A DNA stretch of 64,000 nt. Origin: an uncultured bacterium. GTDB lineage: Bacteria > Patescibacteriota > Minisyncoccia > Phycocordibacterales > GWA1-40-21. Under the pieces are notes generated by a model that was not told the origin of the DNA, did no database searches, and saw only the letters and a list, made by a program, of their open reading frames with translations. Numbering within the stretch: the first letter of the stretch is position 1; every line of letters starts with the position of its first letter. Positions 32,227 through 55,406 of the stretch are shown here, one piece after another. The stretch spans positions 390,970 to 454,969 of the forward strand of contig CAWCTC010000001.1 of the NCBI GenBank assembly GCA_963798465.1. The letters run 5' to 3'. The position numbers and the translations under genes are program-made.

Positions 32227-32287
32227 ACAAAATTGTTATTTTATGTTAATTTAAATTTAGATTTCAAAAAACTAGGAGGTAATAAAT

Positions 32288-32473
32288 ATGAAAAGAATTA
32301 TCATTTACGGAATACTTTTCATTGTTTTGTCTTTATCTATATCATTAATGCTATGCAGTTTGTTTGATGCGTACTGCAGTTTCTGGTATATTTTTGGAAC
32401 ATGCATGTTCTTTTCAATCAGTGATATTATTATAGAGATAAAAAATTTAAAGAATAAGGAGGTGAAAGAATGA
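32288..32473 (+). CDS. Small hydrophobic 2-TM protein with a strong SD (AGGAGGT, 7-nt spacer)
   Basis: 61-aa ORF; stop overlaps the next start (ATGA). Confidence 0.5.
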   Translation: MKRIIIYGILFIVLSLSISLMLCSLFDAYCSFWYIFGTCMFFSISDIIIEIKNLKNKEVKE

Positions 32474-32685
32474 AATTTTTTTACACCATCGCAGCAATAG
32501 TTTTAGTCGTTGTTTCGTTCGTGTTATCGCTCGTGCTATCATTCGTTGTGATGTATTTCCTCAAAAATATGAACATATTCTGGTTCATATTTTCTGTTCT
32601 TTGTCTCTTATCGATATGTTACATAATTTATCTAAAAAGAGACATTGATAAATTCATGGCAAATCATTTAGGTCCAAAAGGGTAA
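32470..32685 (+). CDS. Small hydrophobic 2-TM protein with a strong SD (AAGGAGGTG), translationally coupled to the upstream ORF
   Basis: 71-aa ORF, ATGA overlap, followed by a strong terminator. Confidence 0.5.
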   Translation: MKFFYTIAAIVLVVVSFVLSLVLSFVVMYFLKNMNIFWFIFSVLCLLSICYIIYLKRDIDKFMANHLGPKG

Positions 32686-32694
32686 TGGTTTGCG

Positions 32695-32746
32695 AGCGCC
32701 GCAATTAAAAGTTATTTTTTATAACTTTTAATTGCGGCGTTTTTTG
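32695..32746 (+). terminator. Long rho-independent terminator (GCGCCGCAATTAAAAGTTAT-ttttt-ATAACTTTTAATTGCGGCG + TTTTTTG)
   Basis: About 20-bp perfect stem. Confidence 0.85.
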
Positions 32747-32828
32747 TTATTATAGTTATTGCAAATGAATTTAAATATATCAACAAACCCCGCAAAAAAT
32801 TTTTAAATAATTAACCATTTTTACGATT

Positions 32829-33569
32829 TTGCATATAATTAATAAACATATACTTATGATTAATAATAAATTAAGTGAAAATTTGCGCGGGACAAGAAAC
32901 AGTCTCTTACATCATGCCTATTGTATTTTGGGCAATTCTGCGGATGTAAAAAATGAGCTCGAAAAATTCTTTTTGAAAGAGCTGAAATTTTCAACTGAAA
33001 ATAATCCGGATTTTTGGCACGGAGAATTTGATGTGATGAAGATCGACGACAGCCATGATATTGTGGCTTTGCATCAAAATAAGCCGGTTGCCGGAGACAA
33101 GAAAATTTTTGTTGTCAGCGCAAATTTCATCACGGAGCAAGCGCAGAATGCGATGCTGAAACTTTTCGAGGAACCGAGAGGCGACACACATTTTTTTTTA
33201 GTCCTGCCGTCTCTCAGCAATATTATTCCAACTTTTCGTTCCAGACTTTTTATCATTGACGCGAGTGAAACTGCCGGCTCAATCATAAATCCTGAAAAAT
33301 TTTTGAAAATGCAATATGGCGACAGGATGGAATCTGTCAAAAAAATCTGCGGAAGCATTTCTGATGAAGAAAAAAGCAAGATTGAAATAATAAAATTCAT
33401 AAACGCTTTAGAAATTGAACTGAAAAAACACATCGATTTTTTGAAAGCGAAAAAAACTGAGCTAGATTTATTTGAAGAAATAGAAAAGATAAGACAATAT
33501 GCCGGCGAGCAGTCGCCATCGTTGAAAATGCTTCTGGAGCATATGTCATTGCTTTTGCCTGTTATGTAA
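32829..33569 (+). CDS. holB: DNA polymerase III delta'-like clamp-loader subunit (HolB-like; P-loop degenerate)
   Basis: NAMLKLFEEPRGDTHFFLV (sensor/box VII-like) and TFRSRLFII (SRC-like) motifs; no canonical GKT Walker A. Confidence 0.55.
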   Translation: MHIINKHILMINNKLSENLRGTRNSLLHHAYCILGNSADVKNELEKFFLKELKFSTENNPDFWHGEFDVMKIDDSHDIVALHQNKPVAGDKKIFVVSANFITEQAQNAMLKLFEEPRGDTHFFLVLPSLSNIIPTFRSRLFIIDASETAGSIINPEKFLKMQYGDRMESVKKICGSISDEEKSKIEIIKFINALEIELKKHIDFLKAKKTELDLFEEIEKIRQYAGEQSPSLKMLLEHMSLLLPVM

Positions 33570-33572
33570 AAG

Positions 33573-33641
33573 TGTCATTTCGAGCGAAGCGTGGCAATCT
33601 AGATTTAATTTTTGGATTGCTTCGTTGCACTCGCAATGACA
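33573..33641. repeat. Palindromic intergenic element, copy D
   Basis: TGTCATTTCGAGCGAAGCGTGGCAATC ... GATTGCTTCGTTGCACTCGCAATGACA; starts 3 nt after the holB stop. Confidence 0.8.
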
Positions 33642-33714
33642 AACTTTGAGAGCTGTATTAAATAAACATCATTTGTTATAATGAGCAGTATAAAATTTAT
33701 TAATTAATTAAATT

Positions 33715-33763
33715 TGCGTCGCGCTAAGATGACGGTTGCGCGACGTGATTTCGCAAAATCAAC
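33715..33763 (+). promoter_or_regulatory. Hairpin + TGATTTCGCAAAATCAAC element ending exactly at the frr ATG (candidate 5'-UTR/regulatory element)
   Basis: GCGTCGCGC-taagatgacggtt-GCGCGACG TGATTTCGCAAAATCAAC ATG; similar TAATTTCGCAAAACCAAT ATG precedes greA. Confidence 0.5.
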
Positions 33764-34315
33764 ATGGCTTACGATTTCAAGAAATTAAAAGAAAATATAA
33801 AAGGTGTGGAGGAATGGCTCAAGAAAGAATATTCCGGACTTCGAACCGGCGTTGCCAGTCCAAGTATTTTGGATGGAGTTGCCGTTGAAGTTTATGGTTC
33901 AAGAATGCCGATAAATCAGCTAGCAAATATAGGAATTGAAGATGCGAGAGTCATTAGAATTACTCCTTGGGACAAAACTCAATCAAAAGCTATTGAGAAA
34001 GCTATAACACTCGCAAATCTGAATGTTTCCGTGGGAATAGACGACAAAGGCGTCAGAATATTTTTTCCAGAATTAACAGGTGAAAGAAGAACTCTTCTTA
34101 TTAAAACTGCAAAAACAAAACTTGAAGATGCAAAAGTAAATATCAGAGGTTTCCGCGATGAAGTTTTGAAAGATATCGAGGACAAAAAGAAAAATGGCGA
34201 AATGCCGGAAGACGATATGTTTAGAAACAAAGCTGAAATGCAGAAAATTGTTGATGAAGGAAATATGGCTATGGAAAGTCTGCTTGATAAAAAAGAAAAA
34301 GAAATTAACTCTTAA
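33764..34315 (+). CDS. frr: Ribosome recycling factor
   Basis: 183 aa, canonical RRF sequence (..LRTGVASPSILDGV.VEVYGS..P..Q.A.I...D.R...I.PWDK...). Confidence 0.9.
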   Translation: MAYDFKKLKENIKGVEEWLKKEYSGLRTGVASPSILDGVAVEVYGSRMPINQLANIGIEDARVIRITPWDKTQSKAIEKAITLANLNVSVGIDDKGVRIFFPELTGERRTLLIKTAKTKLEDAKVNIRGFRDEVLKDIEDKKKNGEMPEDDMFRNKAEMQKIVDEGNMAMESLLDKKEKEINS

Positions 34316-34956
34316 TGATCTACAAAATCAAAGAATATAAAAATAAGCTTATTGAAAAGGCTTATAAAGAAGGAATGAAAGAATTCAATAAGTTTTTTGG
34401 TATTAATTGGATACACAATACGCCTAATATTTGCGTATTGGAAAATAGAAAACAAATAAATGCTTTATATAGAAATGATAAAACCGAAGCTTGGATTATT
34501 GGTTTTTCTAAAGAAAATATTTTTTATATTCTTGATAATAAGAAAATGGAAAGTGAAAGCAGCCATAAAAAACATTCAGATGAAAAATATACTGAACTTA
34601 TTAAGCATGAATTATGCCATTCATTTTTCAGTATAGTTTCAAAAAAATATTACAATCCAAAATGGCTCACTGAAGGTGTATCAATATATTTGTCCGGTCA
34701 ATTAAAAGATAAAAAGCCAGTTGAAAAATTTTCAAATTTTCTTGATTTTTATGAGCATGGCGGTGCCGGGGTTTATGCAGAAAGTGGAATGGTTATAAAA
34801 CTTTTGTTAGATAATTTTGGAAAACAAAAATTGCTAAAATTGATTTCTAAATCTGGAGAAGCAAAAAATAAAAAAGACTTTGCAAAATTGTTCAAAAAAA
34901 TATACGGCTTTGATTTGAATTATAAAAATTTTAATAGTTTACTTAAGAAAAAATAG
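34315..34956 (+). CDS. Hypothetical zincin-like metallopeptidase candidate (HELCH ... E 24 residues downstream)
   Basis: HExxH (HELCHSF) followed by WLTEGVSIYL; otherwise unrecognised. Confidence 0.4.
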   Translation: MIYKIKEYKNKLIEKAYKEGMKEFNKFFGINWIHNTPNICVLENRKQINALYRNDKTEAWIIGFSKENIFYILDNKKMESESSHKKHSDEKYTELIKHELCHSFFSIVSKKYYNPKWLTEGVSIYLSGQLKDKKPVEKFSNFLDFYEHGGAGVYAESGMVIKLLLDNFGKQKLLKLISKSGEAKNKKDFAKLFKKIYGFDLNYKNFNSLLKKK

Positions 34957-34958
34957 TC

Positions 34959-36053
34959 ATGATAGTTGTATTATTCATCGTCATTCTTGCTGCTTTGGTT
35001 TTTGTGCATGAGCTCGGGCATTTTGTCATGGCCAAGATTTTTGGTATAAGAGTGGATGAATTTGCCCTTGGTTTTCCGCCCAAAATAATAGGCTTTAAGA
35101 AAGGCGAGACAGAATACAATTTAAACCTTATACCGCTTGGTGGATATGTAAAAATTTTTGGCGAGGATGTCACCGATGAAACAACTTCCGGTCCGGACAG
35201 CAAAAGAAGTTTTATAAATGCGGCAAAATGGAAACAAATTGTCGTTCTTTTGGCCGGTATTCTTATGAATATAATTTTTGCCTGGATTTTGATTTCAATT
35301 TCTTTTAATTTTGGAATGCTTACCTCGATCGAAAATCAGTATGCAAGTAATGCAAAAAATGTTTCGGTAATGGTTTTGTCCGTGCTAAAAGGTTCCCCGA
35401 GCGATTTGGCCGGACTCAAAGAAGGCGATTCTATTTTGGAAATTGATTCTGGAAAAACAAAAATAGTTTCTCCAAGCACCACTGATATTCAAAATATTAT
35501 TTCTGAAAGCAACCAAAGTATAAATATTGAATATCAAAGAGCAAATGCGACTGGAACTGTAAATATTGTTGCTACAAATGGAATTGTCGCCGGCAAAAAA
35601 GCTATTGGTATTTCCATGGGACTTGTCGGAATTGTAAAATTCGGTTTCTTCCAATCTTTTGTCGAGGGTGCAAAACTTACTGCAATTGAAGTCTCAAGCA
35701 TTGCTCAAGGAATTTATGGTTTCATTGTCGGAGCTTTCAAAGGACAAAGTGGTTTGCTTTCCCAAATCACAGGTCCTGTCGGAATTGAAGGAATGGTTGG
35801 CCAAGCAAGCAGCATGGGAATTTCATATCTTTTAGGTTTTATCGCGCTGATTTCAATAAATCTTGCGATGCTGAATCTTGTTCCTTTTCCTGCGCTTGAT
35901 GGTGGAAGAATTTTATTTGTTTTGATTGAAACAGTTATCAGAAAAAGAATAAAGCCCGCGATTGCAAACTGGGCAAACACAATCGGTTTTGTTCTTCTCA
36001 TTGCACTGATGCTTTTTGTGACTTACAAAGATATTTTGAGATTGATTAAATAA
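34959..36053 (+). CDS. rseP: RseP/site-2 protease family M50 zinc metalloprotease with PDZ domain
   Basis: N-terminal HELGHF in TM1, PDZ region, LDGG motif in the C-terminal TM. Confidence 0.8.
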   Translation: MIVVLFIVILAALVFVHELGHFVMAKIFGIRVDEFALGFPPKIIGFKKGETEYNLNLIPLGGYVKIFGEDVTDETTSGPDSKRSFINAAKWKQIVVLLAGILMNIIFAWILISISFNFGMLTSIENQYASNAKNVSVMVLSVLKGSPSDLAGLKEGDSILEIDSGKTKIVSPSTTDIQNIISESNQSINIEYQRANATGTVNIVATNGIVAGKKAIGISMGLVGIVKFGFFQSFVEGAKLTAIEVSSIAQGIYGFIVGAFKGQSGLLSQITGPVGIEGMVGQASSMGISYLLGFIALISINLAMLNLVPFPALDGGRILFVLIETVIRKRIKPAIANWANTIGFVLLIALMLFVTYKDILRLIK

Positions 36054-36162
36054 AATATTTTTCGCTCTAAATTTTAATTTTGATTTTTAATATATCAGCA
36101 TGAAAATTTACAACTAGTCAAGAGTTTTGTTTTAGCGTAAAATAATGTAATATTTAGGCCAT

Positions 36163-37422
36163 ATGAGACAATCAAAGTTGCTTACAAAGACCCGCAAAGA
36201 AGGTCCTAAAGATGAAGTATCAAAAAATGCAAATCTCCTTATTCGCGCAGGATTTATAAATAAAGAAATGGCCGGAGTTTATGATTTTTTGCCGCTCGGA
36301 CTTCGCGTCATGCAAAAAATTGAAAATATAATCCGCGATGAGATGAACAAGCTCGGCGGTTTGGAAATGAAAACTTCAATCATTCAAAGCAAAGAAGTTT
36401 GGGAAAAATCAAACAGGTGGAGCGATGAATTGGTTGATAATTGGTTCAAAACAAAATTAAAAAATGGCACTGAAGTCGGCTTGTCTTTTACGAATGAAGA
36501 AGCTTATGCAAATATTTTAAAGCAATATATCAGCTCATATAAAGATTTGCCGGTCTATCCGTATGATTTTAAAAGTATTTTCAGGAATGAAGCGAGAAGC
36601 AAGTCCGGAATATTGAGAGGAAGAGAATTTTATTGGAAAGCGATGTATTCTTTTTCAAAAGATGAAAATGAGCATGATGAATTTTATGAGAAATCAAAAA
36701 TTGCTTATAAAAATATTTTTAACAGAGTCGGCATCGGACATCTGACTCATCTTACTTTCGCATCCGGCGGAACTTTTTCAAAATTTTCTCATGAATTTCA
36801 GGCCGTAACTCCAGCTGGCGAAGATACGATTTATTTTGATGAAAAAAAGAAAATTGCCGTAAACAGAGAAGTGTATAATGACGAAGTTTTAAAGAGTCTC
36901 GGTTTGGAAAAAAATAAATTGGTTGAACTCAAATCAATCGAAGTCGGAAATATATTTTCTCTCGGCACAAAATTTTCCGAACCGTTTGATTTGAAATATA
37001 AGAATGAAAAAAGCGAAGATAAATTTGTAGTTATGGGAAGTTATGGCATTGGTCTTGGAAGATTGATGGGAACTGTTGTGGAGATTCTTTCTGATGAAAA
37101 GGGAATGATTTGGCCTGTATCCATTGCACCTTTCAAAGTCCATCTTGTCGAGCTGGTTTCAGAAAATATCAAAGTCAAAGAGACTGCGGAAAAGCTTTAT
37201 AATGAGCTTGCAAAAGCCGGAATTGAGGTGTTATATGATGATAGAAATGCGCGCGCCGGAGAAAAGTTCAATGATTCCGATTTAATAGGAATTCCGTTAA
37301 GAATAGTTGTCAGCGAAAAAGGTTTGGAAAAAGGCGAGTTTGAAATCAAACAGAGAATGGATGGAAAAGTTTTGAGTCTTAAAGAAAATGAGATTATAAA
37401 TTTTGTTGAAAAATATAAATAA
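36163..37422 (+). CDS. proS: Prolyl-tRNA synthetase (short form, no editing insertion)
   Basis: MRQSKLLTKTRKEGPKD..LLIRAGFI N-terminus, class II motifs, C-terminal anticodon-binding domain. Confidence 0.85.
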   Translation: MRQSKLLTKTRKEGPKDEVSKNANLLIRAGFINKEMAGVYDFLPLGLRVMQKIENIIRDEMNKLGGLEMKTSIIQSKEVWEKSNRWSDELVDNWFKTKLKNGTEVGLSFTNEEAYANILKQYISSYKDLPVYPYDFKSIFRNEARSKSGILRGREFYWKAMYSFSKDENEHDEFYEKSKIAYKNIFNRVGIGHLTHLTFASGGTFSKFSHEFQAVTPAGEDTIYFDEKKKIAVNREVYNDEVLKSLGLEKNKLVELKSIEVGNIFSLGTKFSEPFDLKYKNEKSEDKFVVMGSYGIGLGRLMGTVVEILSDEKGMIWPVSIAPFKVHLVELVSENIKVKETAEKLYNELAKAGIEVLYDDRNARAGEKFNDSDLIGIPLRIVVSEKGLEKGEFEIKQRMDGKVLSLKENEIINFVEKYK

Positions 37423-37443
37423 TTATTGCCGTTAATTTAAAAC

Positions 37444-38505
37444 ATGCTTGATAATTTAAAGAAAAAATTAAATAAATACTTATATAACGATATAGGAATA
37501 GACCTAGGTACTGCAAATACTCTGGTTTATCTTTCTGGAAAAGGAATCGTTATCAACGAGCCGTCTGTTGTCGCGATGAATCAAAAAACAGGAAGAGTTG
37601 TTGCTGTCGGAACGCAAGCAAAAGAAATGCTCGGAAGAACTCCTCCGCATATTGTTGCAGTAAGACCGCTTGTTGACGGAGTCATTTCCGATTTTGAAGT
37701 TACCGAAGAAATGATTGCATACCTTATAAAAAAAGCTGAAGAATTTTCTCCAAAAATGTTCGGTCCGAGAGTTGTTGTAGGAGTACCAAGCGGAGTAACG
37801 AATGTTGAAATTCGCGCAGTTCGCGACGCTACGAGAAATGCCGGCGCTCGTGAAGTTCATATTGTAGAGGAGCCGATGGCTGGAGCAATTGGAATCCGAC
37901 TTCCTATAAATGAGCCTATCGGAAGCATGGTTATAGATATCGGCGGAGGAACTACGGATATTGCCATCATATCTTTGGGCGGAATTGTCAGATCCAAAAA
38001 TCTGCGAATCGCCGGCGATAAATTAAATAACGATATCATCAGCTATATAAGAAGCGAATTCAAGATTTTAATTGGTGAAAAGACTGCAGAAAACGTAAAA
38101 ATGTCTATAGGTGCGGTTGTTCCTGGAGAACATTTGGAAGCACCGATAAAAGGAAGGGATTTGATAACCGGTCTGCCAAGAGAAGTTATTTTGACTGATG
38201 CGGACATCAGAGAAGCCATGGCTGCTTCGATTGAAAGCTTGGTTGAAGCGACAAAAGAAGTTTTGGAAACTACTCCTCCTGAAATTCTTACAGACATCAT
38301 GCAAAGAGGGATTTATCTTTTTGGCGGCGGAGCTCTTATCAAAGGTCTTGATAGGCTTTTAAGCGATTATCTAAAGATACCGGTGAAATTTGTCGATGAT
38401 CCATTGACCGCAGTAGCGAGAGGAACCGGAGTCATACTTGAAAATATGGAGCTTTACAGCGAATCGTTAATTCAAAATGAAGATGAACTTCCACCTAAGA
38501 AATAA
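37444..38505 (+). CDS. mreB: Rod shape-determining protein MreB (in an mreBCD-pbp2 operon)
   Basis: GIDLGTANTLVY, IDIGGGTTDIAIIS, YLFGGGALIKGL. Confidence 0.9.
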   Translation: MLDNLKKKLNKYLYNDIGIDLGTANTLVYLSGKGIVINEPSVVAMNQKTGRVVAVGTQAKEMLGRTPPHIVAVRPLVDGVISDFEVTEEMIAYLIKKAEEFSPKMFGPRVVVGVPSGVTNVEIRAVRDATRNAGAREVHIVEEPMAGAIGIRLPINEPIGSMVIDIGGGTTDIAIISLGGIVRSKNLRIAGDKLNNDIISYIRSEFKILIGEKTAENVKMSIGAVVPGEHLEAPIKGRDLITGLPREVILTDADIREAMAASIESLVEATKEVLETTPPEILTDIMQRGIYLFGGGALIKGLDRLLSDYLKIPVKFVDDPLTAVARGTGVILENMELYSESLIQNEDELPPKK

Positions 38506-39286
38506 TTTTTCAGACAAGGAAAATACGGGAAGAAATATTTTCTTAGCGATTATTTTTTTGGCAATAATTGTATTTATTTTTTCTTTGTCATGGACAAGAA
38601 ATATTTTGTTCAGTGTAGGCTCTCCTCTTTGGTCTGTAAAAAATGAAGTTTCATATTTTTTTGAGGAAAATATCAGTTTGCTGAATTCAAAATCAAATTT
38701 GATTGCGGAAAATGATTCACTCGAGGTGCAGATAAAATCCGATGCAGAAAATCAGGCATTGTACGGCGTGCTTCAGGCTGAAAATAGCGATTTGCAAAAT
38801 ATTTTGAATAGAAAAAACAGTAATCAAAATCTTCTGCTTTCTTCCGTTTTAGTCAAACCATTTTTGTCTCCATACGACACTCTTTTAATAGATGTCGGTT
38901 CATCAACCGGCGTAATTGTCGGCGATAAAGTTTTGTATAATGGCGACACTTTTATAGGATATATTTCACAAGTCTATGAGAATACTTCAAAAGTCACATT
39001 GTATTCTTCACCTGGCGAAAAAGTCGATGTTTTGATCGGCAGCGATTCCATAGAAAAAGAAGCAACTGGCTTGGGCGGAGGAAATTTTAATGTCGAAATA
39101 CCGAAAGAAAGCGATATAAAAGAAGGCGATGCGATAACAATACCGTCTATTTCTACAAATGTTTTTGGCATTGTTGAAAAAATAGAATCAAAAGATTCTG
39201 ATTCATTTGAAACTATATTGTTCAAAAGTCCGGTTAATATTTCTGAATTAAAATTTGTTGAAATTGATTTGGATAATAAAAAATAA
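38477..39286 (+). CDS. mreC: Rod shape-determining protein MreC
   Basis: N-terminal TM, coiled-coil, C-terminal beta-rich domain; operon position after mreB. Confidence 0.7.
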   Translation: MKMNFHLRNNFSDKENTGRNIFLAIIFLAIIVFIFSLSWTRNILFSVGSPLWSVKNEVSYFFEENISLLNSKSNLIAENDSLEVQIKSDAENQALYGVLQAENSDLQNILNRKNSNQNLLLSSVLVKPFLSPYDTLLIDVGSSTGVIVGDKVLYNGDTFIGYISQVYENTSKVTLYSSPGEKVDVLIGSDSIEKEATGLGGGNFNVEIPKESDIKEGDAITIPSISTNVFGIVEKIESKDSDSFETILFKSPVNISELKFVEIDLDNKK

Positions 39287-39287
39287 T

Positions 39288-39551
39288 ATGGCTAGAATTT
39301 TAATAAATCTGCTGATTGTTCTTTCAGTATTTGTTTTTCCGCCATATGTATCGGCGCTCATAATTTTATTGGCAATATTTTTCATAAATAATTTTTTTGA
39401 GGCGATTGCCTGGGGAGCGCTTATAGACATATTATACGGAGGCGGAACAATTTTTGGTTTGCATTTTGCATATTTTTTTACAGCAATAATTTTTATTTTT
39501 TATCTGTTTTCCTTTAAATTTAAAAAAATGCTAAGATTGTCTTTCCGATAG
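39288..39551 (+). CDS. mreD: MreD-like small polytopic membrane protein (ORF-track start at 39255; ATG at 39288 preferred)
   Basis: Position between mreC and pbp2; all-hydrophobic 87 aa. Confidence 0.4.
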   Translation: MARILINLLIVLSVFVFPPYVSALIILLAIFFINNFFEAIAWGALIDILYGGGTIFGLHFAYFFTAIIFIFYLFSFKFKKMLRLSFR

Positions 39552-39561
39552 AAATTTTATC

Positions 39562-41274: not shown

Positions 41275-41412
41275 AATTAGTTATATTAAATAAGACCTAT
41301 TTTGACTTTGGAGCAAAAAATTGCTAAAATACTGGCAAGTTTTATTAATTAAATTTCGAATATCGTTGCACCTAAATATGATGTCTGTGTAGCGTAATTT
41401 CGCAAAACCAAT

Positions 41413-41880
41413 ATGGAAGAAAAAAGAGAATATCTCACAAAACAGAAATACGATGAATTGGTAGCTGAACTTAAAGAATTGAAAAATGTCAAAAGAAAAG
41501 AAGTTGCCGAAGCACTCGATTATGCGAGAGGTCTTGGAGATTTGTCAGAAAATGCCGAATACCATGAAGCGAGATCACAGCAAGCTGATATTGAAGAAAG
41601 AATAATAAAGATTGAAAATGTGCTTACGAATACAACTGTTGTCGAGGATAAGCATGGAGATCATGTTGTCATAGGTAGCACTGTTGTCGTGGAAAAACCT
41701 GATGGTTCAAAAAAGATGACGCTAAAAATAGTCGGTTCAACAGAGTCAGATATTTCATTGGGTAAAATTTCAAACAGATCTCCAATCGGCGCAGCTGTTT
41801 TGGGAAAAAAGAAAGGAGACAGTTTCTCTTTCATGAGTCCATCAGGAAAAATGGAATATAAAGTTGTAGATGTCAAATAA
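41413..41880 (+). CDS. greA: Transcription elongation factor GreA
   Basis: 155 aa; N-terminal coiled coil with conserved acidic tip (DLSENAEY), C-terminal FKBP-like domain. Confidence 0.9.
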   Translation: MEEKREYLTKQKYDELVAELKELKNVKRKEVAEALDYARGLGDLSENAEYHEARSQQADIEERIIKIENVLTNTTVVEDKHGDHVVIGSTVVVEKPDGSKKMTLKIVGSTESDISLGKISNRSPIGAAVLGKKKGDSFSFMSPSGKMEYKVVDVK

Positions 41881-41889
41881 ATAAAATAA

Positions 41890-43347: not shown

Positions 43348-43367
43348 ATTTTTTATAAAAAATATTA

Positions 43368-45082: not shown

Positions 45083-45090
45083 AAAATAAA

Positions 45091-47180: not shown

Positions 47181-47331
47181 ATAAATTGCCAATTTTTATA
47201 AGGAAAATATGCTAGAATAAAAAAACTTGTCCCGTTAAAAATTCAGTTAAGGTCAAAGGAAAATTACGTGCAATAGAAATAATAATAATCAAAAAAGTCG
47301 TAAAGTTTAATAAGTAAAATTTTGTACTGAG

Positions 47332-48630: not shown

Positions 48631-48631
48631 A

Positions 48632-48940
48632 ATGACAATACCAGAAAATAAACAGGAAAGTAATAATGTAGAACAGAATCAGAAGGATTTTTTTGATATG
48701 ATTCCTACAAAAGAAAGGAATGCATTTCAATATGTTCTTTTGAAAAAGATGGGAGCAGAGAGAGGAAATCATGAATTACAATCGGAGTTATCAACAAATT
48801 TTAGCGCAGATATGCACCGAATTATTGATGATACTAGCAGGAAAGATAATAAACAAATAAGAGCTTTGATTATGGAAGGGAAAAATGAAGAAGCTGCGGA
48901 AATTGTCGATAAAATCCTAAAAAAAGAAATATACAATTAA
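48632..48940 (+). CDS. Hypothetical protein
   Basis: 102-aa ORF following murF. Confidence 0.4.
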   Translation: MTIPENKQESNNVEQNQKDFFDMIPTKERNAFQYVLLKKMGAERGNHELQSELSTNFSADMHRIIDDTSRKDNKQIRALIMEGKNEEAAEIVDKILKKEIYN

Positions 48941-48943
48941 AAA

Positions 48944-48980
48944 TAAAAGCCGGGTTTTAATTCCCGGCTTTTGTTTTTTG
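48944..48980. terminator. Terminator hairpin AAAGCCGGG-ttttaatt-CCCGGCTTT + T-run
   Basis: 9-bp stem flanked by A/T runs (bidirectional). Confidence 0.7.
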
Positions 48981-49196
48981 TTTTCTCGAGTTTCCGATTA
49001 TTCTGCGATAATCGAATTCTTCGTTTCTTTTTTTCCTTTCGTCGATTACAGGTTTTTTCTTTCTGAAATACATAATCAACACATATGCTATGTTAATTAT
49101 GATTAAGAACAGAAAAACCCATTTAAAAAAATTCCACATTTCTTTTGCATATTCCACGAACACAAAAATAAGTCCCATCAATTTGATGTCTCCCAT
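48957..49196 (-). CDS. Small membrane protein with a strong SD (GGAGGT)
   Basis: 79-aa ORF, central TM; minus-strand upstream CTCGAAGGAGGTAAAAA-ATG. Confidence 0.45.
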   Translation of the reverse strand: MGDIKLMGLIFVFVEYAKEMWNFFKWVFLFLIIINIAYVLIMYFRKKKPVIDERKKRNEEFDYRRIIGNSRKQKTKAGN

Positions 49197-49269
49197 TTTT
49201 TACCTCCTTCGAGATTTTTTTCTGATCAGATATTATAATGAAATTCAACTAAGGTCAAGTATTTAAAGT

Positions 49270-50295
49270 TCAAATAAACGGAGTCGAGTTTTTCCAGTCT
49301 AAGTCGAAAGTTTTGCTCAATGGGCCGATTATTTCTTGATTGCCGATTATTATGCCGAGCTCGCGATTATCATCCATTGAGCCTGTGGAAAAATTCTCGG
49401 AGCCGACGAATGCTTTCTTATCATCGACAAGAATTATTTTTGCATGGATATAAATTGAAGCATCGGATGAAAAAGTTCTGACATGAACTCCAGCTGATGA
49501 AAGTTTTTGAAAAGCAGTTTTCCAGTCGCTTGAATAAGTCATATCGACTTCGACATTCACTCCGCGCTTTGCAGCCGTTTCAAGCGCGCTGATAACGTCG
49601 GAGTCTGACATTTCTTCGTTGTAGATTTCAACTGAAGATTTTGCGTTATTGATAAGCGACAGAAGGGAAGTTTTTGAATTTGGGCTCCAAATTAAATCAT
49701 CTCCATTAAGAGTTGAAATTTTATTATTCTGCCAATCCGCATTAAAAGTTTTTTCAATCGCTGAAATATCATTTTGATCTTCATCATTAATTCCAAAATC
49801 TCTGTCGCTCGCATAATATTGCGGAGTGAAATTAAAAGTCATAATAAGTGCGTCATTTCCATCGATGACAATAGTTTTTTGATGAGTCAGAGCAAAATAC
49901 GACGGCGACCATCGGACAGGAATATTATTTGTTTGCAGATATGAATAAGCCGATTCATTCGCGGTTTCTTGTTCGCCATAATAACCCTTGTTCAAAATAA
50001 CACGGACGGAAACTCCTCGCTTTTCAGCTGATGCAAGAGCCTGTTCAATCTGCTTGTCTTCAAACTCATACATTACAAGATCGATGGATTTTTTTGCATT
50101 ATTAATCAATGAAATAATCGGTGTGATGCCGTCGTCCGGCTCGATAATCAAACTAGTCGAAGCAGTATTTTCGCTTTTTAAAGTTTGAGTATTTGAATTT
50201 TTTGAATTGGAATTTGTTTTATTTCCGACGGCAAAAATAATAGCCAAAATAATTATTATTCCCGCGGAGAAAATTATTTTATTAATTTTTTTCAC
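49270..50295 (-). CDS. Phospholipase D-family protein (two HKD motifs; cardiolipin-synthase/Nuc-like), N-terminal membrane anchor
   Basis: HQKTIVIDG and HAKIILVDD...GSENFS motifs. Confidence 0.75.
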   Translation of the reverse strand: MKKINKIIFSAGIIIILAIIFAVGNKTNSNSKNSNTQTLKSENTASTSLIIEPDDGITPIISLINNAKKSIDLVMYEFEDKQIEQALASAEKRGVSVRVILNKGYYGEQETANESAYSYLQTNNIPVRWSPSYFALTHQKTIVIDGNDALIMTFNFTPQYYASDRDFGINDEDQNDISAIEKTFNADWQNNKISTLNGDDLIWSPNSKTSLLSLINNAKSSVEIYNEEMSDSDVISALETAAKRGVNVEVDMTYSSDWKTAFQKLSSAGVHVRTFSSDASIYIHAKIILVDDKKAFVGSENFSTGSMDDNRELGIIIGNQEIIGPLSKTFDLDWKNSTPFI

Positions 50296-50302
50296 AAATT
50301 GA

Positions 50303-51067
50303 ATGATAGCATTATTTTTTCAAATATTATATTATTGCCGGATGGAAATGATTTTATTATCGATCGGGACATTTTTCTCCACTTTCTTGGGCGGGTTTTT
50401 TTTAATCAAAAATAAAGATAAATTACACAGAGTTCTCGGCTTTACCGCTGGTGTGCTCATGGGCGTCGTGTTTTTTGATATTTTTCCCGAAATAATCGAG
50501 CTCATCAATAAGAACAATTTTAGTATTACGAATGTCATGATTGCGCTGATTTTAGGTTTTTTAATTTTTCATATTTTTGAGAAATCGATTTTGATACATC
50601 ATTCTCATGAAGAAGAATATGCAGATCACAAACATCCTCATATTGGAATAGCATCAGCAATAGCTTTAGCGGGGCACAGCTTCATGGATGGTGTTGGCAT
50701 TGGTCTAGGTTTTCAAGTTAATCCAACAGTCGGACTTTTGATTGCAATCGCTGTTATCGCTCATGATTTTACCGATGGCATGAATACTGTCGGCTTGATG
50801 CTTGTAAATAAAAATACAGTTGAAAAAACAAGATGGTTTTTATTGCTCGATGCTTTTACTCCAGTTCTTGGCGCAGCTTCAACTTTGCTTTTCAGATTAC
50901 CCGAAAGTTTTTTAGTTTTGTATCTTGGATTTTTTGCAGGTTTTCTTCTTTATATCGGAGCGAGCGATATTTTGCCCGAAGCTCACAGCAAACATAGCTC
51001 TTTCAAAACAATTGCACTCACTATTGCCGGATTGATTTTAATTTTTATTGTGACGAGGTTTGTTTAA
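50303..51067 (+). CDS. ZIP-family divalent metal transporter (ZupT-like)
   Basis: His-rich loop (HHSHEEEYADHKHPH), GHSFMDGVGIGLGF and HDFTDG signatures. Confidence 0.8.
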   Translation: MIALFFQILYYCRMEMILLSIGTFFSTFLGGFFLIKNKDKLHRVLGFTAGVLMGVVFFDIFPEIIELINKNNFSITNVMIALILGFLIFHIFEKSILIHHSHEEEYADHKHPHIGIASAIALAGHSFMDGVGIGLGFQVNPTVGLLIAIAVIAHDFTDGMNTVGLMLVNKNTVEKTRWFLLLDAFTPVLGAASTLLFRLPESFLVLYLGFFAGFLLYIGASDILPEAHSKHSSFKTIALTIAGLILIFIVTRFV

Positions 51068-51082
51068 CCTCTTTTAAATTTG

Positions 51083-51154
51083 TGACCTTACGGGGAATCG
51101 AACCCCGATTCCAGCCTTGAGAAGGCCGTGTCCTAACCGTTAGACGATAAGGCC
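51083..51154 (-). tRNA. tRNA-Glu (anticodon CTC)
   Basis: Minus-strand GGCCTTATCGTCTAACGGTTAGGACACGGCCTTCTCAAGGCTGGAATCGGGGTTCGATTCCCCGTAAGGTCA: anticodon loop TTCTCAA, T-loop TTCGATT. Confidence 0.85.
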
Positions 51155-51257
51155 AAAATATTTACTTAACACGGACAAATATAACAGTTTTTGATGTTTT
51201 GAACAAATAAAAAAAGGAACTGGAGTAAATATTTTTCCAGTTCCCAATTTTTAGTTT

Positions 51258-51446
51258 TTACGAGGACTTAGCGAAAGTCCCAAAAAGTGCATCGATGTTA
51301 AATTCCCTTTTTTTCGCCTGGATTATTTTTTCCGTATCGGCGTCTTCAACTGTTGGTACTAACAATCCTTTTTTTGCCAGGATTGCTAGGCCATTTTTTA
51401 CACTTTCTGTTTCTGAGACGTTTTCTGTCTTCTGCTGTTCAGTCAT
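51258..51446 (-). CDS. Small hypothetical protein with a strong SD (GAGGAGG)
   Basis: 62-aa ORF; CTGAGGAGGATTAGA-ATG; terminator hairpin downstream (51205-51250). Confidence 0.5.
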   Translation of the reverse strand: MTEQQKTENVSETESVKNGLAILAKKGLLVPTVEDADTEKIIQAKKREFNIDALFGTFAKSS

Positions 51447-51585
51447 TCTAATCCTCCTCAGACTAAAAATAGTTTTGTGAGACGAGTCTCACATGGAAAA
51501 ACATTTTACCACCATCAAAAATATTGTCAAATAAAAATAAAAAAAGGGAAGCAACATGTGCCTCCCTTATTTTGCACTCAAACTT

Positions 51586-51963
51586 TTAGTCGATGTGTCT
51601 GAATGGCTCGACAAATAGTAACATTTGCCGAGAAGCTAATTCTGCTTTCTTTATTTGCTTTTCGAAAGCTTCCTTTTCAGCTTTTTTCTTTTCAGCTTCA
51701 GCTGCTGCTCTTCTTGCTTCAGCTTCAGCCATTGCTTTTTTTGCTTCTCTGTTGTGAAAAGCCTTCAAAGAATTTCTTCTTGTCATTTCTGCCTGGAAGA
51801 GATCAAAGCTTATTCCAGCGGCATCTGCACCTTTAATAATCGCCTCACTATGGTGATTTTTATAGTAAGGGAACTCTGCCTGCAAATCGCGAAATTCTTT
51901 TATTGCTATTTCGTAAATTGCCGGATCCATCAATTGTCTTTCGAGCTCAGCTAAACTTTTCAT
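51586..51963 (-). CDS. Hypothetical protein with a strong SD (GGGAGGT); Ala/Glu/Lys-rich C-terminal half
   Basis: 125-aa ORF; CCGGGAGGTAAAA-ATG. Confidence 0.5.
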   Translation of the reverse strand: MKSLAELERQLMDPAIYEIAIKEFRDLQAEFPYYKNHHSEAIIKGADAAGISFDLFQAEMTRRNSLKAFHNREAKKAMAEAEARRAAAEAEKKKAEKEAFEKQIKKAELASRQMLLFVEPFRHID

Positions 51964-52063
51964 TTTTACCTCCCGGTAAAATATTTTATTTTGTTGAAAG
52001 AACTATTAACTTCAAATTATTATAACCTCATATATGACATTTTGTCAAATAAAAAAGCGAGAC

Positions 52064-52384
52064 TTAAATCTCGCTTTCTCTATCGTCATAATATCGGACT
52101 CTCCCTTCTTCATCTTTCCATGCAAGTCCGGAATCAATATCTCTTTCCTCCTTTTCTTCTTTTGTTTCAATTTCAGATTTCGGTTTTCCCCAGTCTGCTA
52201 AAGTTTTTGCAATATTTTTCGTGTCCCAGCCGGTTTCTTCTGAGACTTTTCCTATGCAAACTCTCATTGAGTATTCAGAATTATTTTTTATTTCCATTGC
52301 CATACGAGCTGCATCATCCAAAGTGTATTCTTTTTCCACTTTTTTTTCGGATGGTACAATAGTTATCTTAGGCCACTTTTCCAT
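52064..52384 (-). CDS. Hypothetical acidic protein
   Basis: 106-aa ORF. Confidence 0.4.
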   Translation of the reverse strand: MEKWPKITIVPSEKKVEKEYTLDDAARMAMEIKNNSEYSMRVCIGKVSEETGWDTKNIAKTLADWGKPKSEIETKEEKEERDIDSGLAWKDEEGRVRYYDDRESEI

Positions 52385-52395
52385 AGTTTTTAAAA

Positions 52396-52848
52396 TTATT
52401 TTATCAAGCTTTCAATGACTTCTTTTACCATCATTCCGTCTGCTTTGCCTTTAAGCTCTTTCATAATTCCGCCCATGAATTGGCCGATTTTAGATTTGTC
52501 GACAGTGCCGGCTTCGGCGATTTTCTTGCTGACAATTTTTTCGATTTCATCTCGGCTCATCAGCTGCGGCAATAATGCTTCAAGTATTTTCATTTCATCG
52601 GCTTCAGCTTTCACTAAATCCATTCTGTTTCCTTTGGTGAACTGATCGATTGAATCTTTTCTTTGCTTTATGAGTTTTCTAATTATCGTTGTTGCATCTT
52701 CATCTGAAAGCTCTTCTGTTGTTAATTTTTTTGCGATTATTTCATTTGTAAAAGCTGCAGATACTCCGCGTAGAACCATAAGGCGAAATGCATCTTTTTT
52801 AATCATCGCTTCTTTTATTCCATCTTTGATTTGTTTGTGTAGTGACAT
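52396..52848 (-). CDS. GatB/YqeY-domain protein
   Basis: 150 aa; YqeY family signature (..KDAMKA.D..R..TLR..L.A.K.....). Confidence 0.75.
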   Translation of the reverse strand: MSLHKQIKDGIKEAMIKKDAFRLMVLRGVSAAFTNEIIAKKLTTEELSDEDATTIIRKLIKQRKDSIDQFTKGNRMDLVKAEADEMKILEALLPQLMSRDEIEKIVSKKIAEAGTVDKSKIGQFMGGIMKELKGKADGMMVKEVIESLIK

Positions 52849-52917
52849 TTTTTTTTGAATGAATTATGAATAATGTTTAACTTCTAAATATTACCATATT
52901 TTTAATTTATTGGTATA

Positions 52918-54000
52918 ATGATTTTTATGGATACAGCGACAACATTGATAGTTTTGATAGTAATTTTAACTGCTATAGTTATTGTACTTCTGGCTATAGT
53001 TATTAAAAAAACTGGCAAAAATACTAATGAAAATAAAGCCGAAGATATCGGCCTCAAGCTTATTCTCGAGCAGATAAATGAGCTCAATCGAACAGTTGAT
53101 AAAAAAATGGGCGAGAGTTCAAAGGAAATGCACGAATCGCTCAAATATCAGTCGACTGAATCTTTCAATATTATTCGTGACATCACAGAAAAGCTCACAC
53201 GACTCGATGAGACGAACAAGCAAGTCGTTTCTTTTGCCGATCAACTCCAATCACTTCAAGATATTCTAAAAAATCCAAAACAAAGAGGAATTCTCGGCGA
53301 ATATTATTTGGAAACTTTATTAAAAAATGTTTTGCCGACTGGAAGCTTTCAGATGCAATATCCATTTGCTGATGGAACTATCGTTGATGCTGTCGTTTTT
53401 GTAAAGGATAAAATAATTCCGATTGATTCAAAGTTTTCTTTAGAAAATTATAATCGTTTGTCTGAAGAAAAAAATCCTGCAGAAAAAGAAAGATTGGAAA
53501 AACTTTTTAAGGAGGATTTGAAAAAAAGGATTGACGAGACTGCAAAATATGTAAAGCCGGGCGAGGGAACAATGGATTTTGCTTTTATGTTTATTCCGCA
53601 CGAAGCGATTTATTATGATTTACTTGTGTCACAAGTCGGATCGATAAAAGTAAATACGAGAGATTTGGTTGAGTATGCGTTCAAGGAAAAGCATGTCATC
53701 ATTGTTTCGCCGACATCTTTCTTGGCATATTTGCAAACTGTTTTGCAAGGTTTGAAAGCATTGCAGATTGAAGAATCAGCGAAAGATATTAAAAAGAATG
53801 TTGAAAGCTTGCAGAAGCATTTGAGAAGCTATCAAGAATATCAAGAGAAGCTCGGCAATGCACTTTCTACAACTGTAAGCCATTTCAATAATTCAAATAA
53901 AGAATTTAAAAAGATAGATAAAGATGTCGTAAGAATTACCGGAGTTGATTCTGATTTGGAAATTCTGGAAATAGCAAAGCCTGAAAGGGAAGATGAATAA
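52918..54000 (+). CDS. rmuC: DNA recombination protein RmuC
   Basis: N-terminal TM + coiled coil, conserved RmuC C-domain (FMFIPHEAIYYDLL, VSPTSFLAYLQTV). Confidence 0.85.
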   Translation: MIFMDTATTLIVLIVILTAIVIVLLAIVIKKTGKNTNENKAEDIGLKLILEQINELNRTVDKKMGESSKEMHESLKYQSTESFNIIRDITEKLTRLDETNKQVVSFADQLQSLQDILKNPKQRGILGEYYLETLLKNVLPTGSFQMQYPFADGTIVDAVVFVKDKIIPIDSKFSLENYNRLSEEKNPAEKERLEKLFKEDLKKRIDETAKYVKPGEGTMDFAFMFIPHEAIYYDLLVSQVGSIKVNTRDLVEYAFKEKHVIIVSPTSFLAYLQTVLQGLKALQIEESAKDIKKNVESLQKHLRSYQEYQEKLGNALSTTVSHFNNSNKEFKKIDKDVVRITGVDSDLEILEIAKPEREDE

Positions 54001-54007
54001 ATAAAAT

Positions 54008-54048
54008 AAAAAAGAACCTTCTCAAATGAGAAGGTTCTTTTGTTTTTC
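54008..54048 (+). terminator. Terminator AAAGAACCTTCTC-aaat-GAGAAGGTTCTTT + T-run
   Basis: 13-bp perfect stem. Confidence 0.8.
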
Positions 54049-54243
54049 AGTGTCAAATGGCGGAAGAAAATATATCGGTATTTCCTTGTGTGAAAATATC
54101 ACAGCAAGTATTTTTCTTTTCTTGGCAATTTTTCTCGCTATAGATACCACGTCCTCGCCATCTTTAACTTCAAGTTTGATTTTTGATATGCCGCATTTTC
54201 TGTAGGCGCATATCATACACCATCCAGTTTTGCCTTTCCTCAT
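54022..54243 (-). CDS. Small hypothetical protein with an SD-like AAAGGTGGTG
   Basis: 73-aa ORF whose 3' end overlaps the rmuC terminator hairpin. Confidence 0.35.
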   Translation of the reverse strand: MRKGKTGWCMICAYRKCGISKIKLEVKDGEDVVSIARKIAKKRKILAVIFSHKEIPIYFLPPFDTEKQKNLLI

Positions 54244-54370
54244 AAGGCACCACCTTTCTTTTTGTACATTAGAAATTTTATTTCCTCCATGAATAAGAAT
54301 AACAGAGGATGATATTTTTGTCCATAAAAAAACCGGGGCAAATGAGTCCCGGCCTTTTTCTATTTCATCT

Positions 54371-54568
54371 TTACTTTTTCTTTTTCTTCTTAAGGATTTT
54401 TTTTATTCCTTTTGTTACCTCCTTAATATCTTTTTCTGATACTTTGTTTATCTCATATTTTTCTATGACATAAACAAAATCTTTTAGGTTTTTCTTCACA
54501 CTTCTTAAAGGAAGTAAAACATAAGCAATTTCTCCATCCTTAATTTCTCTAAAATTTTTTTCAGTCAT
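54371..54568 (-). CDS. Small hypothetical Lys-rich protein with a strong SD (AGGAGGG)
   Basis: 65-aa ORF; CACAGGAGGGTTAC-ATG. Confidence 0.4.
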   Translation of the reverse strand: MTEKNFREIKDGEIAYVLLPLRSVKKNLKDFVYVIEKYEINKVSEKDIKEVTKGIKKILKKKKKK

Positions 54569-54703
54569 GTAACCCTCCTGTGAGTTAAATTTTGGTAATT
54601 TACGTCCGAGAATTAGGCTAGCAGAATAGGTTATGTTTGTCCATTAAATAAAAGTAGGGCGGTTGATTACAACCGCCCTACAAACATATTTGAAATTAAA
54701 ACA

Positions 54704-55252
54704 TCATCTTTGGCCTAAGTTATAAGTATTGAGTCCTTTTAGAAATTCGGAATTAATATATGCCTCCAGTTTTTTATAATCTGTTTTGACATATGTTACT
54801 CCCCACATTTCTGCAATTTTCTCAATTTCCTCCATTGTTCCCAGTTTTTTGTAAATCAAGGTAGCATGGTGATTACCTCTGCCGTAATTGTTCTTGCTTA
54901 ACGATGCTGTTAACCTCGGGCAGTTTTTTGGAGTCTCTTTCTTTTCATTAACCCCACTTATCTCCTCATGGACAGCTTTTATTATTGCTGCTTCCATAAG
55001 ATGCAGGGAGGAATTCATCTGTTTGTAGATGACATTCTTTGCTAATGCGAGTGCCAGTATTTCTTTCTTTTCTCCCACATCCATGATTTTGATGTGGCAT
55101 TCCAAACCTTTCCTTACAGGCATTACAAAAAATGAAACATGGTGAAATTCCTTGGCTTTTATTCTTTCGTCTTCGGTCACCATTTCTCTTTCTTCAGAAA
55201 TGACAAAATGCCTTTTAGTTTTAAACTCCGTGGCAATTTCATTCATCTCCAT
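54704..55252 (-). CDS. Hypothetical protein with a strong SD (GGAGGAGG)
   Basis: 182-aa ORF; TTTGGAGGAGGACAAAAA-ATG. Confidence 0.5.
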   Translation of the reverse strand: MEMNEIATEFKTKRHFVISEEREMVTEDERIKAKEFHHVSFFVMPVRKGLECHIKIMDVGEKKEILALALAKNVIYKQMNSSLHLMEAAIIKAVHEEISGVNEKKETPKNCPRLTASLSKNNYGRGNHHATLIYKKLGTMEEIEKIAEMWGVTYVKTDYKKLEAYINSEFLKGLNTYNLGQR

Positions 55253-55406
55253 TTTTTGTCCTCCTCCAAAGTTTTTTTAATATATTCTTCCTCAAAAACT
55301 CTATATTACTTTTTATATAATGTCAATAACCTTGAAAAACTTTCTTTACAAACATATTTATTGTATTATCAATAAATACTTTTAAAAACTTTTACTTCAG
55401 AAAATT

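Follow-up and report, generated by a model that had tools for sequence, protein, structure and literature searches.

Genomes poor in Shine-Dalgarno (SD) sequences are already known. The closest precedent is Flavobacterium johnsoniae, whose ribosomes are SD-blind: its strongly SD-led rpsU gene, encoding bS21, is autoregulated through sequestration of the anti-SD by bS21 together with bS18 and bS6 (Jha et al. 2021, PMC7797042; McNutt et al. 2023, PMC9976891; PMC13000453). Here we analysed a 64-kb stretch of contig CAWCTC010000001.1 (hereafter the window; 30-39% GC), in which eight genes carry strong SDs and the housekeeping genes carry none. Similar to Bacteroidia such as F. johnsoniae, the window combines a nearly SD-free gene set and A-rich upstream regions with a few genes that have a strong, conserved SD, as expected of a special-purpose signal. 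The two differ in what is SD-led, which is rpsU in Bacteroidia and at least seven units of fast-evolving ORFans within 64 kb in the window; no match to Ribosomal_S21 or to any other Pfam or NCBIfam family was found among the eight SD-led proteins. Closer to the host, a study of the same broad lineage (Tsurumaki et al. 2022, RNA 28:1041, PMC9297842) agrees with the near-absence of SDs on the core genes of the window and its relatives; it treated rRNA and ribosomal proteins rather than mRNAs and described no dichotomy within a genome. A full-text literature search likewise returned no paper describing such an SD dichotomy within a genome of the Candidate Phyla Radiation (CPR). We propose that the eight open reading frames (ORFs) are genuine small accessory genes, inherited with the chromosome and evolving fast, that form a separate SD-led expression class in an SD-less genome, a reading to which we assign a probability of roughly 0.65.

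The nearest relatives of the window's LeuS, searched in GTDB contigs with one genome per species, are metagenome-assembled genomes (MAGs) labelled Paceibacterota, Nomurabacteria or Patescibacteria. Judged from its sequence, the host is a Paceibacteria-type member of Patescibacteria (CPR). RNA genes in the window comprise RNase P RNA and three tRNAs. For comparison we used contigs of a sister strain, whose shared DNA is ~93% identical, taken from assemblies of NCBI MAGs and of JGI, ENA and Logan metagenomes, together with more distant syntenic contigs; contigs are designated by L or P numbers, and L094 is GCA_041656855.1. Such contigs occur in peat and permafrost samples (for example JGI 3300050026 and ERR11594402).

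Upstream regions of 30-60 nt were inspected for 77 non-overlapping ORFs of at least 60 aa, and a second scan collected all GGAGG-like motifs upstream of any start codon. The sequence-only reading had named eight SD-led genes and stated that core genes lack an SD, and both observations were reproduced. An SD-like site at the proper distance precedes 8 of the ~77 ORFs, precisely those named (six minus-strand genes had been listed by their stop-codon ends; their ATGs lie at 49196, 51446, 51963, 54243, 54568 and 55252). Seven of the eight sites are GGAGG, often GGAGGT, with 5-8 nt from the core to the ATG, and the eighth, at 54243, is a weaker GGTGG-type site. Duplex energies were computed between the region -20..-1 and ACCUCCUUA, which is the canonical 16S tail and was not read from this organism. 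The eight SD-led genes reach -8.5 to -13.5 kcal/mol, whereas the other 69 ORFs, all recognisable housekeeping genes included, do not exceed -6.1 kcal/mol in strength (median +0.2). For 20-mers drawn at random from the window the median is -1.3 kcal/mol, and 1.2% reach -8; the SD-less upstream regions are thus weaker than random sequence. The SD-positive genes are also short, with a median of 72 aa as compared with 213 aa for SD-negative ones in the window (Mann-Whitney p = 7e-5).

The SD-less set covers the core functions of the window. It includes bS1, MurJ, ParB, Rel, TopA, PriA, two MreB proteins, RRF, GreA and MraZ, as well as LysS, LeuS, PBP2, Mur ligase, RmuC, YqeY and four pilins of the type IV secretion system (T4SS) type. 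Alternative starts within 90 nt were searched for hidden SDs and added no credible one, and no variant SD motif was enriched upstream of the SD-less genes. Their positions -17..-1 are depleted in G (0-0.16, compared with 0.19 genome-wide) and rich in A (up to 0.45-0.57). Small size does not by itself predict an SD: at least ten small genes, mostly without a domain match, lack one (5804, 21011, 21499, 22049, 23506, 45091, 48632, 52064, 4116 and 63431), and HicA (77 aa), the pilins, GreA and MraZ are likewise SD-less. Shortness alone is therefore no explanation of the class.

We considered whether the GGAGG motifs might serve as something other than ribosome-binding sites, namely as a site for a protein or RNA regulator such as a CsrA-like GGA binder, as part of a leader structure, or as chance occurrences. 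Chance was excluded, because seven GGAGG-N5-8-ATG arrangements were observed at the 5'-proximal start codon of ORFs with 60 aa or more, compared with a mean of 0.06 and a maximum of 2 in 200 first-order Markov simulations. Structure is present in two of the leaders. The GGAGG of the 125-aa unit sits within a small conserved hairpin (UUUUACC...GGUAAAA), and the leader of the 62-aa gene, at the position we call slot D, carries a conserved inverted repeat (TGTGAG...CTCACA) whose outer arms are invariant in four lineages and whose centre is compensatory in L112; this repeat could be an operator or an RNA hairpin acting as a 5' stabiliser. Also in favour of such a role is that this organism's anti-SD is unverified. 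Nevertheless, GGAGG stands at a fixed 5-8 nt before the ATG of a conserved ORF in every case, and the matches extend along the canonical tail (GGAGGT and TAAGGAGGTGA, the latter, at 32455-32465, being an 11-nt complement of it). Folding of the leaders showed no systematic sequestration of the SD, and a repressor site placed over an SD would still imply that the SD functions. We regard a role other than ribosome binding as very improbable.

The eight SD-led genes make up seven self-contained units, as the 61-aa and 71-aa genes form a bicistron. In each, the layout is a sigma70-like promoter, a leader of ~40-50 nt, an SD, an ATG, a short ORF and an intrinsic terminator; where the promoter is recognisable, the distance from its -10 box to the ATG is 45-56 nt, which gives the leader length. 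All eight starts are ATGs, they are 5'-proximal in their ORFs, and the ORFs are kept in relatives. Near-consensus -35 elements (TTGACA or TTGACC) occur in four units, those of the 125-, 62-, 182- and 79-aa genes, and the 65-aa and 73-aa genes have a promoter-like TGGACA-17-TAnnnT. Across the 64 kb, the intergenic pattern TTGAC[AT]-N15-19-TAnnnT was found six times: three times at SD-led genes, and otherwise at greA, at a sigma-like gene and at one place with no target gene. Its TTGACC variant precedes a fourth SD-led gene (79 aa). Every unit ends with a hairpin and T run, a feature not specific to the class, as terminators are frequent at operon ends throughout the window. In these respects the units share the signals of SD initiation in Bacillota and E. 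coli, that is, (A)GGAGG(T), a spacer of 5-8 nt, ATG, TTGACA/TATAAT promoters and intrinsic terminators.

Such an architecture raises the possibility that the SD is needed mechanically on short, monocistronic, leadered mRNAs and so marks a type of transcript instead of a biological class. Consistent with this idea, all seven units stand alone, with -10 boxes, where recognisable, ~45-56 nt upstream of the ATG; the SD-less small ORFans 48632, 52064 and 45091 follow closely behind another operon gene; and the stand-alone SD-less genes 22806, 23506, 26452, 63431 and rmuC (52927) carry a -10-like box at a distance (6-9 nt from the ATG) that would be compatible with leaderless mRNA. However, leadered genes without an SD exist, namely greA (TTGACT-17-TAAAAT, 82 nt upstream) and frr, which has a structured leader. 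The 86-aa gene at 5804 (5804-6064) has no SD, one of the SD-led genes encodes 182 aa, and at least ten small genes manage without an SD, so that the earlier suggestion of a special requirement of very short mRNAs does not hold as a rule. Leaderless mRNAs for the SD-less first genes were rejected as unsupported, since a distance histogram of -10-like hexamers gave no peak at 6-9 nt from the ATG, the upstream DNA being uniformly AT-rich. Transcript architecture as the whole explanation is in our view unlikely.

Conservation across syntenic relatives favours a distinct expression class. The gene order in L094 is DUF8128, sigma-like, LeuS, 179 aa, 73 aa, RmuC, YqeY, 103 aa, 106 aa, 76 aa, 87 aa and Mur ligase, and the larger proteins are well conserved between L094 and the window (YqeY 84%, RmuC 89%, LeuS ~82% and sigma-like 89% identical). 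The small proteins are 33, 33, 47 and 33% identical, with slot D unalignable; among the syntenic relatives as a whole they are 31-47% identical or unalignable. Even so, the -35 element, the -10 element, parts of the leader and GGAGG can be aligned in all five L094 slots, with a like pattern at slots A, C and D in L093, L111, L112/L113 and L114/L115. The slot D leader is conserved in four lineages despite diverged ORFs. In all orthologs compared (the five LeuS-Mur ligase slots with three to five lineages each, and the L097 pair) the GGAGG core is kept, the sole variant being GGGGG in L093, while the coding sequences and much of the leader diverge around it. From the retention of these signals in the face of protein divergence we infer that the SDs are under purifying selection. 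The distinct expression class proposed from the sequence alone is thus supported: these are autonomous units whose promoter, leader and SD are kept in four to six lineages as their coding sequences diverge.

The same comparison bears on the proposal of a recent import, in which phages, plasmids or SD-using bacteria would have supplied the SD-led genes, with donor expression signals that persist. Some of the evidence points that way. A variable stretch adjoining tRNA-Glu contains all six minus-strand genes, and the same stretch in L112 holds DUF4238 and a 1575-aa helicase-nuclease of the accessory-island type. Two slots have replaced content in a sister strain of ~93% identical shared DNA, and one SD-led family occurs both in L016, upstream of and divergent from LeuS, and at slot C of L112 (45% identity, E = 2e-17); SD-led families can therefore occupy different slots. 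The consensus promoter, SD and terminator are 'universal' signals, and the pooled codon usage of the SD-led genes is modestly different from that of the remaining window genes (distance 0.096; null 0.062 +/- 0.009; GC at third codon positions 0.354 compared with 0.313). Against an import, searches of the eight proteins in Pfam, NCBIfam, PHROG and PADLOC gave no significant match (PHROG hits all had E values of 0.007 or more and were unconvincing), and no relative of the 182-aa or the 125-aa protein, the two that were scanned, was found among IMG/VR viral contigs. No integrase, transposase or flanking repeats were seen, and the neighbours are housekeeping genes. GC content is normal (0.34, compared with 0.36 for the genome). 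Homologs are confined to a few Patescibacteria-like contigs. Five slots are syntenic over lineages that are 11-18% apart in housekeeping proteins, with alignable promoters and leaders, which indicates vertical descent. The origin in phages or mobile elements suggested earlier thus found no backing in synteny, inheritance or homology to phage, defence or domain families, and we consider recent import quite unlikely.

We therefore favour the reading of the eight genes as a chromosomally inherited, SD-led class; their features are compiled in Table 1.

Table 1 Predicted features of the seven SD-led units. Positions refer to the window. CDS, coding sequence; GRAVY, grand average of hydropathy; pN/pS, ratio of nonsynonymous to synonymous changes
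Unit	Feature	Position	Strand	Remarks
61/71 aa	SD of 61-aa gene, AGGAGGT (site aAGGAGGTaataaatATG)	32274..32280	+	7 nt to ATG 32288; -11.5 kcal/mol; AGGAGGT also in L097
61/71 aa	CDS, 61-aa hydrophobic protein	32288..32473	+	GRAVY 0.99; first gene of bicistronic unit
61/71 aa	SD of 71-aa gene, TAAGGAGGTGA (site TAAGGAGGTGAaagaATG)	32455..32465	+	within 3' end of 61-aa ORF; -13.5 kcal/mol
61/71 aa	CDS, 71-aa hydrophobic protein	32470..32685	+	GRAVY 1.37; second gene of bicistronic unit
61/71 aa	Intrinsic terminator	32695..32741	+	20-bp stem, then T run
79 aa	Promoter-like TTGACC...TATAAT/TAATAT	49230..49258	-	TTGAC and -10 box kept in L001, L094
79 aa	SD AAGGAGGT (site AAGGAGGTaaaaaATG)	49202..49209	-	5-6 nt to ATG 49196; -13.0 kcal/mol; AAGGAGG kept in L001, L094
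79 aa	CDS, 79-aa protein, hydrophobic segment and basic tail	48957..49196	-	
79 aa	Intrinsic terminator	48945..48972	-	bidirectional hairpin shared with convergent operon
62 aa (slot D)	Promoter TTGACA-16-TAAAAT	51503..51530	-	11/12, TG-extended; kept in L001, L094, L112
62 aa (slot D)	Inverted repeat TGTGAGAC-TC-GTCTCACA	51476..51493	-	predicted 5' end of leader
62 aa (slot D)	SD GAGGAGG (site GAGGAGGattagaATG)	51453..51459	-	6 nt to ATG 51446; -12.1 kcal/mol; kept in L001, L094, L112
62 aa (slot D)	CDS, 62-aa hydrophilic protein	51258..51446	-	fastest-evolving of the set
62 aa (slot D)	Terminator hairpin and T run	51207..51244	-	read from sequence; just upstream of tRNA-Glu (51082-51154)
125 aa	Promoter TTGACA-18-TATAAT	52019..52048	-	12/12; kept in L094, L113-L115
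125 aa	SD GGGAGGT (site GGGAGGTaaaaATG)	51968..51974	-	4-5 nt to ATG 51963; -11.6 kcal/mol
125 aa	CDS, 125-aa charged protein	51586..51963	-	
125 aa	Intrinsic terminator	51544..51568	-	
73 aa	Weaker SD-like AAGGTGGTG (site AAGGTGGTGccttATG)	54248..54256	-	4-6 nt to ATG 54243; -8.5 kcal/mol
73 aa	CDS, 73-aa basic protein	54022..54243	-	pN/pS 0.17 against sister strain
73 aa	Bidirectional terminator	54010..54041	-	common to 73-aa gene and rmuC
65 aa	Promoter-like TGGACA-17-TAGCCT	54615..54643	-	read from sequence; TAGACA-17-TAACCT at same place in L094
65 aa	SD AGGAGGG (site AGGAGGGttacATG)	54573..54579	-	4-5 nt to ATG 54568; -10.8 kcal/mol; GAGGAGGTG in L094
65 aa	CDS, 65-aa Lys-rich protein	54371..54568	-	L094 homolog 33% identical
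65 aa	Terminator	54325..54354	-	
182 aa	Promoter TTGACA-17-TAGAGT	55298..55326	-	divergent from leuS
182 aa	SD GGAGGAGG (site GGAGGAGGacaaaaaATG)	55260..55267	-	7 nt to ATG 55252; -12.1 kcal/mol
182 aa	CDS, 182-aa soluble alpha/beta protein	54704..55252	-	6 representatives in 1.84 billion proteins
182 aa	Intrinsic terminator	54654..54681	-	

Three of the SD-led proteins, those of 61, 71 and 79 aa, are hydrophobic and probably reside in the membrane; the other five are hydrophilic, charged soluble proteins. The small proteins have 90%-identity clusters of 1-5 members, and no homologs turned up when 23 Patescibacteria LeuS loci were searched with them by tblastn. In the bicistronic unit, the stop of the 61-aa gene and the start of the 71-aa gene overlap as ATGA. 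Both proteins have orthologs of equal length in the sister-strain locus L097, with 58% identity and pN/pS 0.41 for the first and 75% and 0.26 for the second. The DNA of the pair is 70-78% identical to L097 between flanks of 90-97%, and the L097 counterpart of TAAGGAGGTGA is AGGAGGTGA. At the same place L098 has a different 57-aa hydrophobic ORF with GGAGGT. Both genes were left uncalled by the gene finder on the Logan contig L091, and a collection of 15 billion proteins does not contain them. The 79-aa protein has a 33% identical ortholog in L094, of 87 aa when read from its SD-led ATG, and the 79-aa slot of sister strain L001 holds two SD-led hydrophobic ORFs instead. Automatic calling started the L094 ortholog (9092-9355) at an internal ATG and gave 57 aa instead of 87, 30 codons short. 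On L001 (16119-16548), the second hydrophobic ORF of this slot is given different starts in the L001 and L002 gene calls. The three hydrophobic proteins resemble type I toxin-antitoxin systems in being short, stand-alone, strongly signalled and fast-evolving. The set differs from such systems in that five of the eight proteins are hydrophilic and none of the eight matches a toxin family; no overlapping antisense RNA was evident, although no search was aimed at one.

At slot D, the ORFs of the relatives encode 79 (L001), 76 (L094) and 55 aa (L112) and cannot be aligned to the 62-aa protein; by eye they have in common only a short C-terminal KK..GI..LF(G)-like motif. The 125-aa protein, probably a coiled-coil, has homologs of 47% (L094) and 55% (P0027) identity and only 2 clusters in 5.8 billion proteins. 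Its SD region, CCGGGAGGTAAAAA-ATG, is shared without change by L113-L115, and L094 has CCTGAGGAGGTAAAAA. A 22-aa 'SD-led ORF' at 51557-51489 was rejected as a gene, as it is the terminator hairpin of the 125-aa gene. The weaker SD-like AAGGTGGTG of the 73-aa gene is identical in L001, and the gene is absent from L094. Upstream of the 182-aa gene, TTGACA is invariant and the -10 box is kept in five lineages; the SD corresponds to AGGAGG in L094, L111 and L112 and to GGGGG in L093. An AlphaFold2 model of the 182-aa protein was of medium confidence (predicted local distance difference test score 66, predicted template modelling (TM) score 0.65), and a Foldseek search of this model against the PDB yielded no match (best E = 0.24, TM <0.25).

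The design extends beyond these syntenic contigs. When the best of several starts is taken for each ORF, -8 kcal/mol is reached by 4.9% of 391 ORFs in 23 Patescibacteria LeuS loci and by 4.9% in Bacteroidota. In contrast, 39% of control-locus ORFs in Bacillota pass this strict threshold, as compared with ~10% of the ORFs, and no housekeeping gene, in the window. Where relatives have convincing SD-led genes, most of these are small ORFs that stand alone and repeat the arrangement of promoter, leader, SD and terminator (L012, L016), and non-homologous SD-led small ORFs of like architecture were found in other Paceibacteria loci (L012, L016 and L098). L034 has two larger SD-led genes as well.

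Several points weigh against the proposed SD-led class. Its generality across the genome is an extrapolation from the 64 kb of the window, on a contig of ~733 kb. When the relatives are pooled, SD-positive ORFs do not differ significantly in length from SD-negative ones (p = 0.135), owing to false positives from the crude caller. The small SD-less ORFans leave it unexplained how genes are selected into the SD-led class, and the codon deviation could reflect amino-acid composition, expression level or foreign ancestry. No rRNA was found in the window or in any of the loci compared, and in Parcubacteria the anti-SD motif was detected in only 48% of 16S genes (PMC9297842). A search of all loci for prfB, whose frameshift site is an independent test of the anti-SD, found no RF2. 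A host 16S tail ending ...CCUCCUUA would favour functional SD pairing. The conserved canonical SDs in turn speak for a working anti-SD in this lineage at least.

On the favoured reading of a separate SD-led class, core genes would start without SD pairing, either from A/T-rich, G-depleted and presumably unstructured upstream regions or closely behind the preceding gene of an operon. If the SDs are under purifying selection, a CCUCC anti-SD should still be usable on the ribosome, with SD pairing restricted to this small class of leadered mRNAs. The most likely purpose of joining an SD to a near-consensus promoter would be strong translation, independent of operon context, of small proteins with fast evolutionary turnover. 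What the sequences show is the dichotomy, the architecture of the units, the conserved signals and the lack of known homologs; pairing between SD and anti-SD, high expression and a biological role are here predictions. One could go further and postulate two initiation regimes, an SD-independent one for the bulk of genes and an SD-dependent channel for exchangeable 'plug-in' cassettes, gated by the state of the ribosome's 3' tail. We consider this unlikely. If true, it would be a CPR counterpart of the bS21/rpsU switch of Bacteroidia, whose targets would here be accessory small proteins, perhaps serving interaction with a host, and not a ribosomal protein. A mechanism of the Bacteroidia type is itself in doubt here, as bS21 is reported to be often missing in Parcubacteria (PMC9297842).

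Other observations were made in the window and its relatives. A repeated two-hairpin element, GCGTCGCGC...GCGCGACGT followed by GATTYCGCARAAYCAA, occurs at 16944-17010 (-), 29327-29393 (+), 33700-33766 (+), 41349-41415 (+) and 59199-59265 (+), and also in L094 just downstream of the sigma-like gene. Its 16-mer (up to 2 mismatches) has seven matches, as compared with 0.7 expected, and compensatory changes are seen in 5 of the 14 predicted pairs. At frr and at greA, a copy stops 1 nt short of the ATG; another copy is isolated, ahead of a terminator. An Rfam search of the element gave no family match. The element is a candidate for a new motif of the cis-regulatory or small RNA kind and may bear on the expression of leadered, SD-less genes. 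A 19-nt string, CAAAAATTTTCTCGGATAA, directly precedes the ATG of two unrelated genes, a 211-aa ORF at 2019 (2000-2021, +) and a PriA-like gene from 29228 (29226-29247, -).

Essential genes are split into several ORFs at leuS (~57400-57410), the gyrA-like gene (2811-5757), SerRS (24987-26366) and DUF8128 (59339-60679). In leuS, a single-base insertion, GTTTCGATC, is seen against GTTT-GATC of the sister strain, whose LeuS is one 859-aa gene; the split is probably an assembly or sequencing error and not pseudogenisation. Between 44800 and 64000, the comparison of the window with L002/L003 is a mosaic of blocks of ~100% and of 65-90% identity, a pattern suggestive of frequent homologous recombination between populations. 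The low synonymous divergence that some small genes show from the sister strain was rejected as a special feature, being part of this region-wide mosaic of 100%- and 75-90%-identical blocks.

Among the SD-less genes, four paralogous small T4SS-type pilin genes (PF18895/TrbC) form an array at 8017-10227. A HicA-toxin gene (77 aa) lies at 23506-24048 with a 101-aa partner upstream, and a CATAAT box 7 nt from the ATG of this partner would be compatible with a leaderless transcript. A (TA)n microsatellite (~63398-63424) immediately precedes the gene at 63431, which encodes 165 aa; the homologous protein varies from 89 to 167 aa among strains. In L112, slot D is followed at 7652-10475 by DUF4238, a 329-aa ORF and a 1575-aa helicase-nuclease (DUF4011/AAA_11/AAA_12/MTES_1575/DUF3320). 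Genes of this kind are typical of defence or accessory islands, and the position corresponds in the window to the site adjoining tRNA-Glu. In L034 (11436-12760), a more distant Patescibacteria MAG, a 377-aa Cys-rich ORF and a 64-aa Asp/Trp/Gly-rich ORF follow one another, both with strong SDs. By the appearance of its sequence, the 377-aa ORF may be a radical S-adenosylmethionine maturase, and the two may form a pair resembling those of ribosomally synthesised and post-translationally modified peptides.

The conserved SD-led set of the window makes the role of the remaining anti-SD in SD-poor organisms outside Bacteroidia testable in CPR bacteria. As gene finders skip or truncate these SD-led genes in mostly SD-less genomes, catalogues of CPR small proteins are probably biased. 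The SD-led units appear to be the most strongly signalled in the window and their proteins have no known family or fold, which makes them candidates for abundant, lineage-specific factors of these episymbiotic bacteria.

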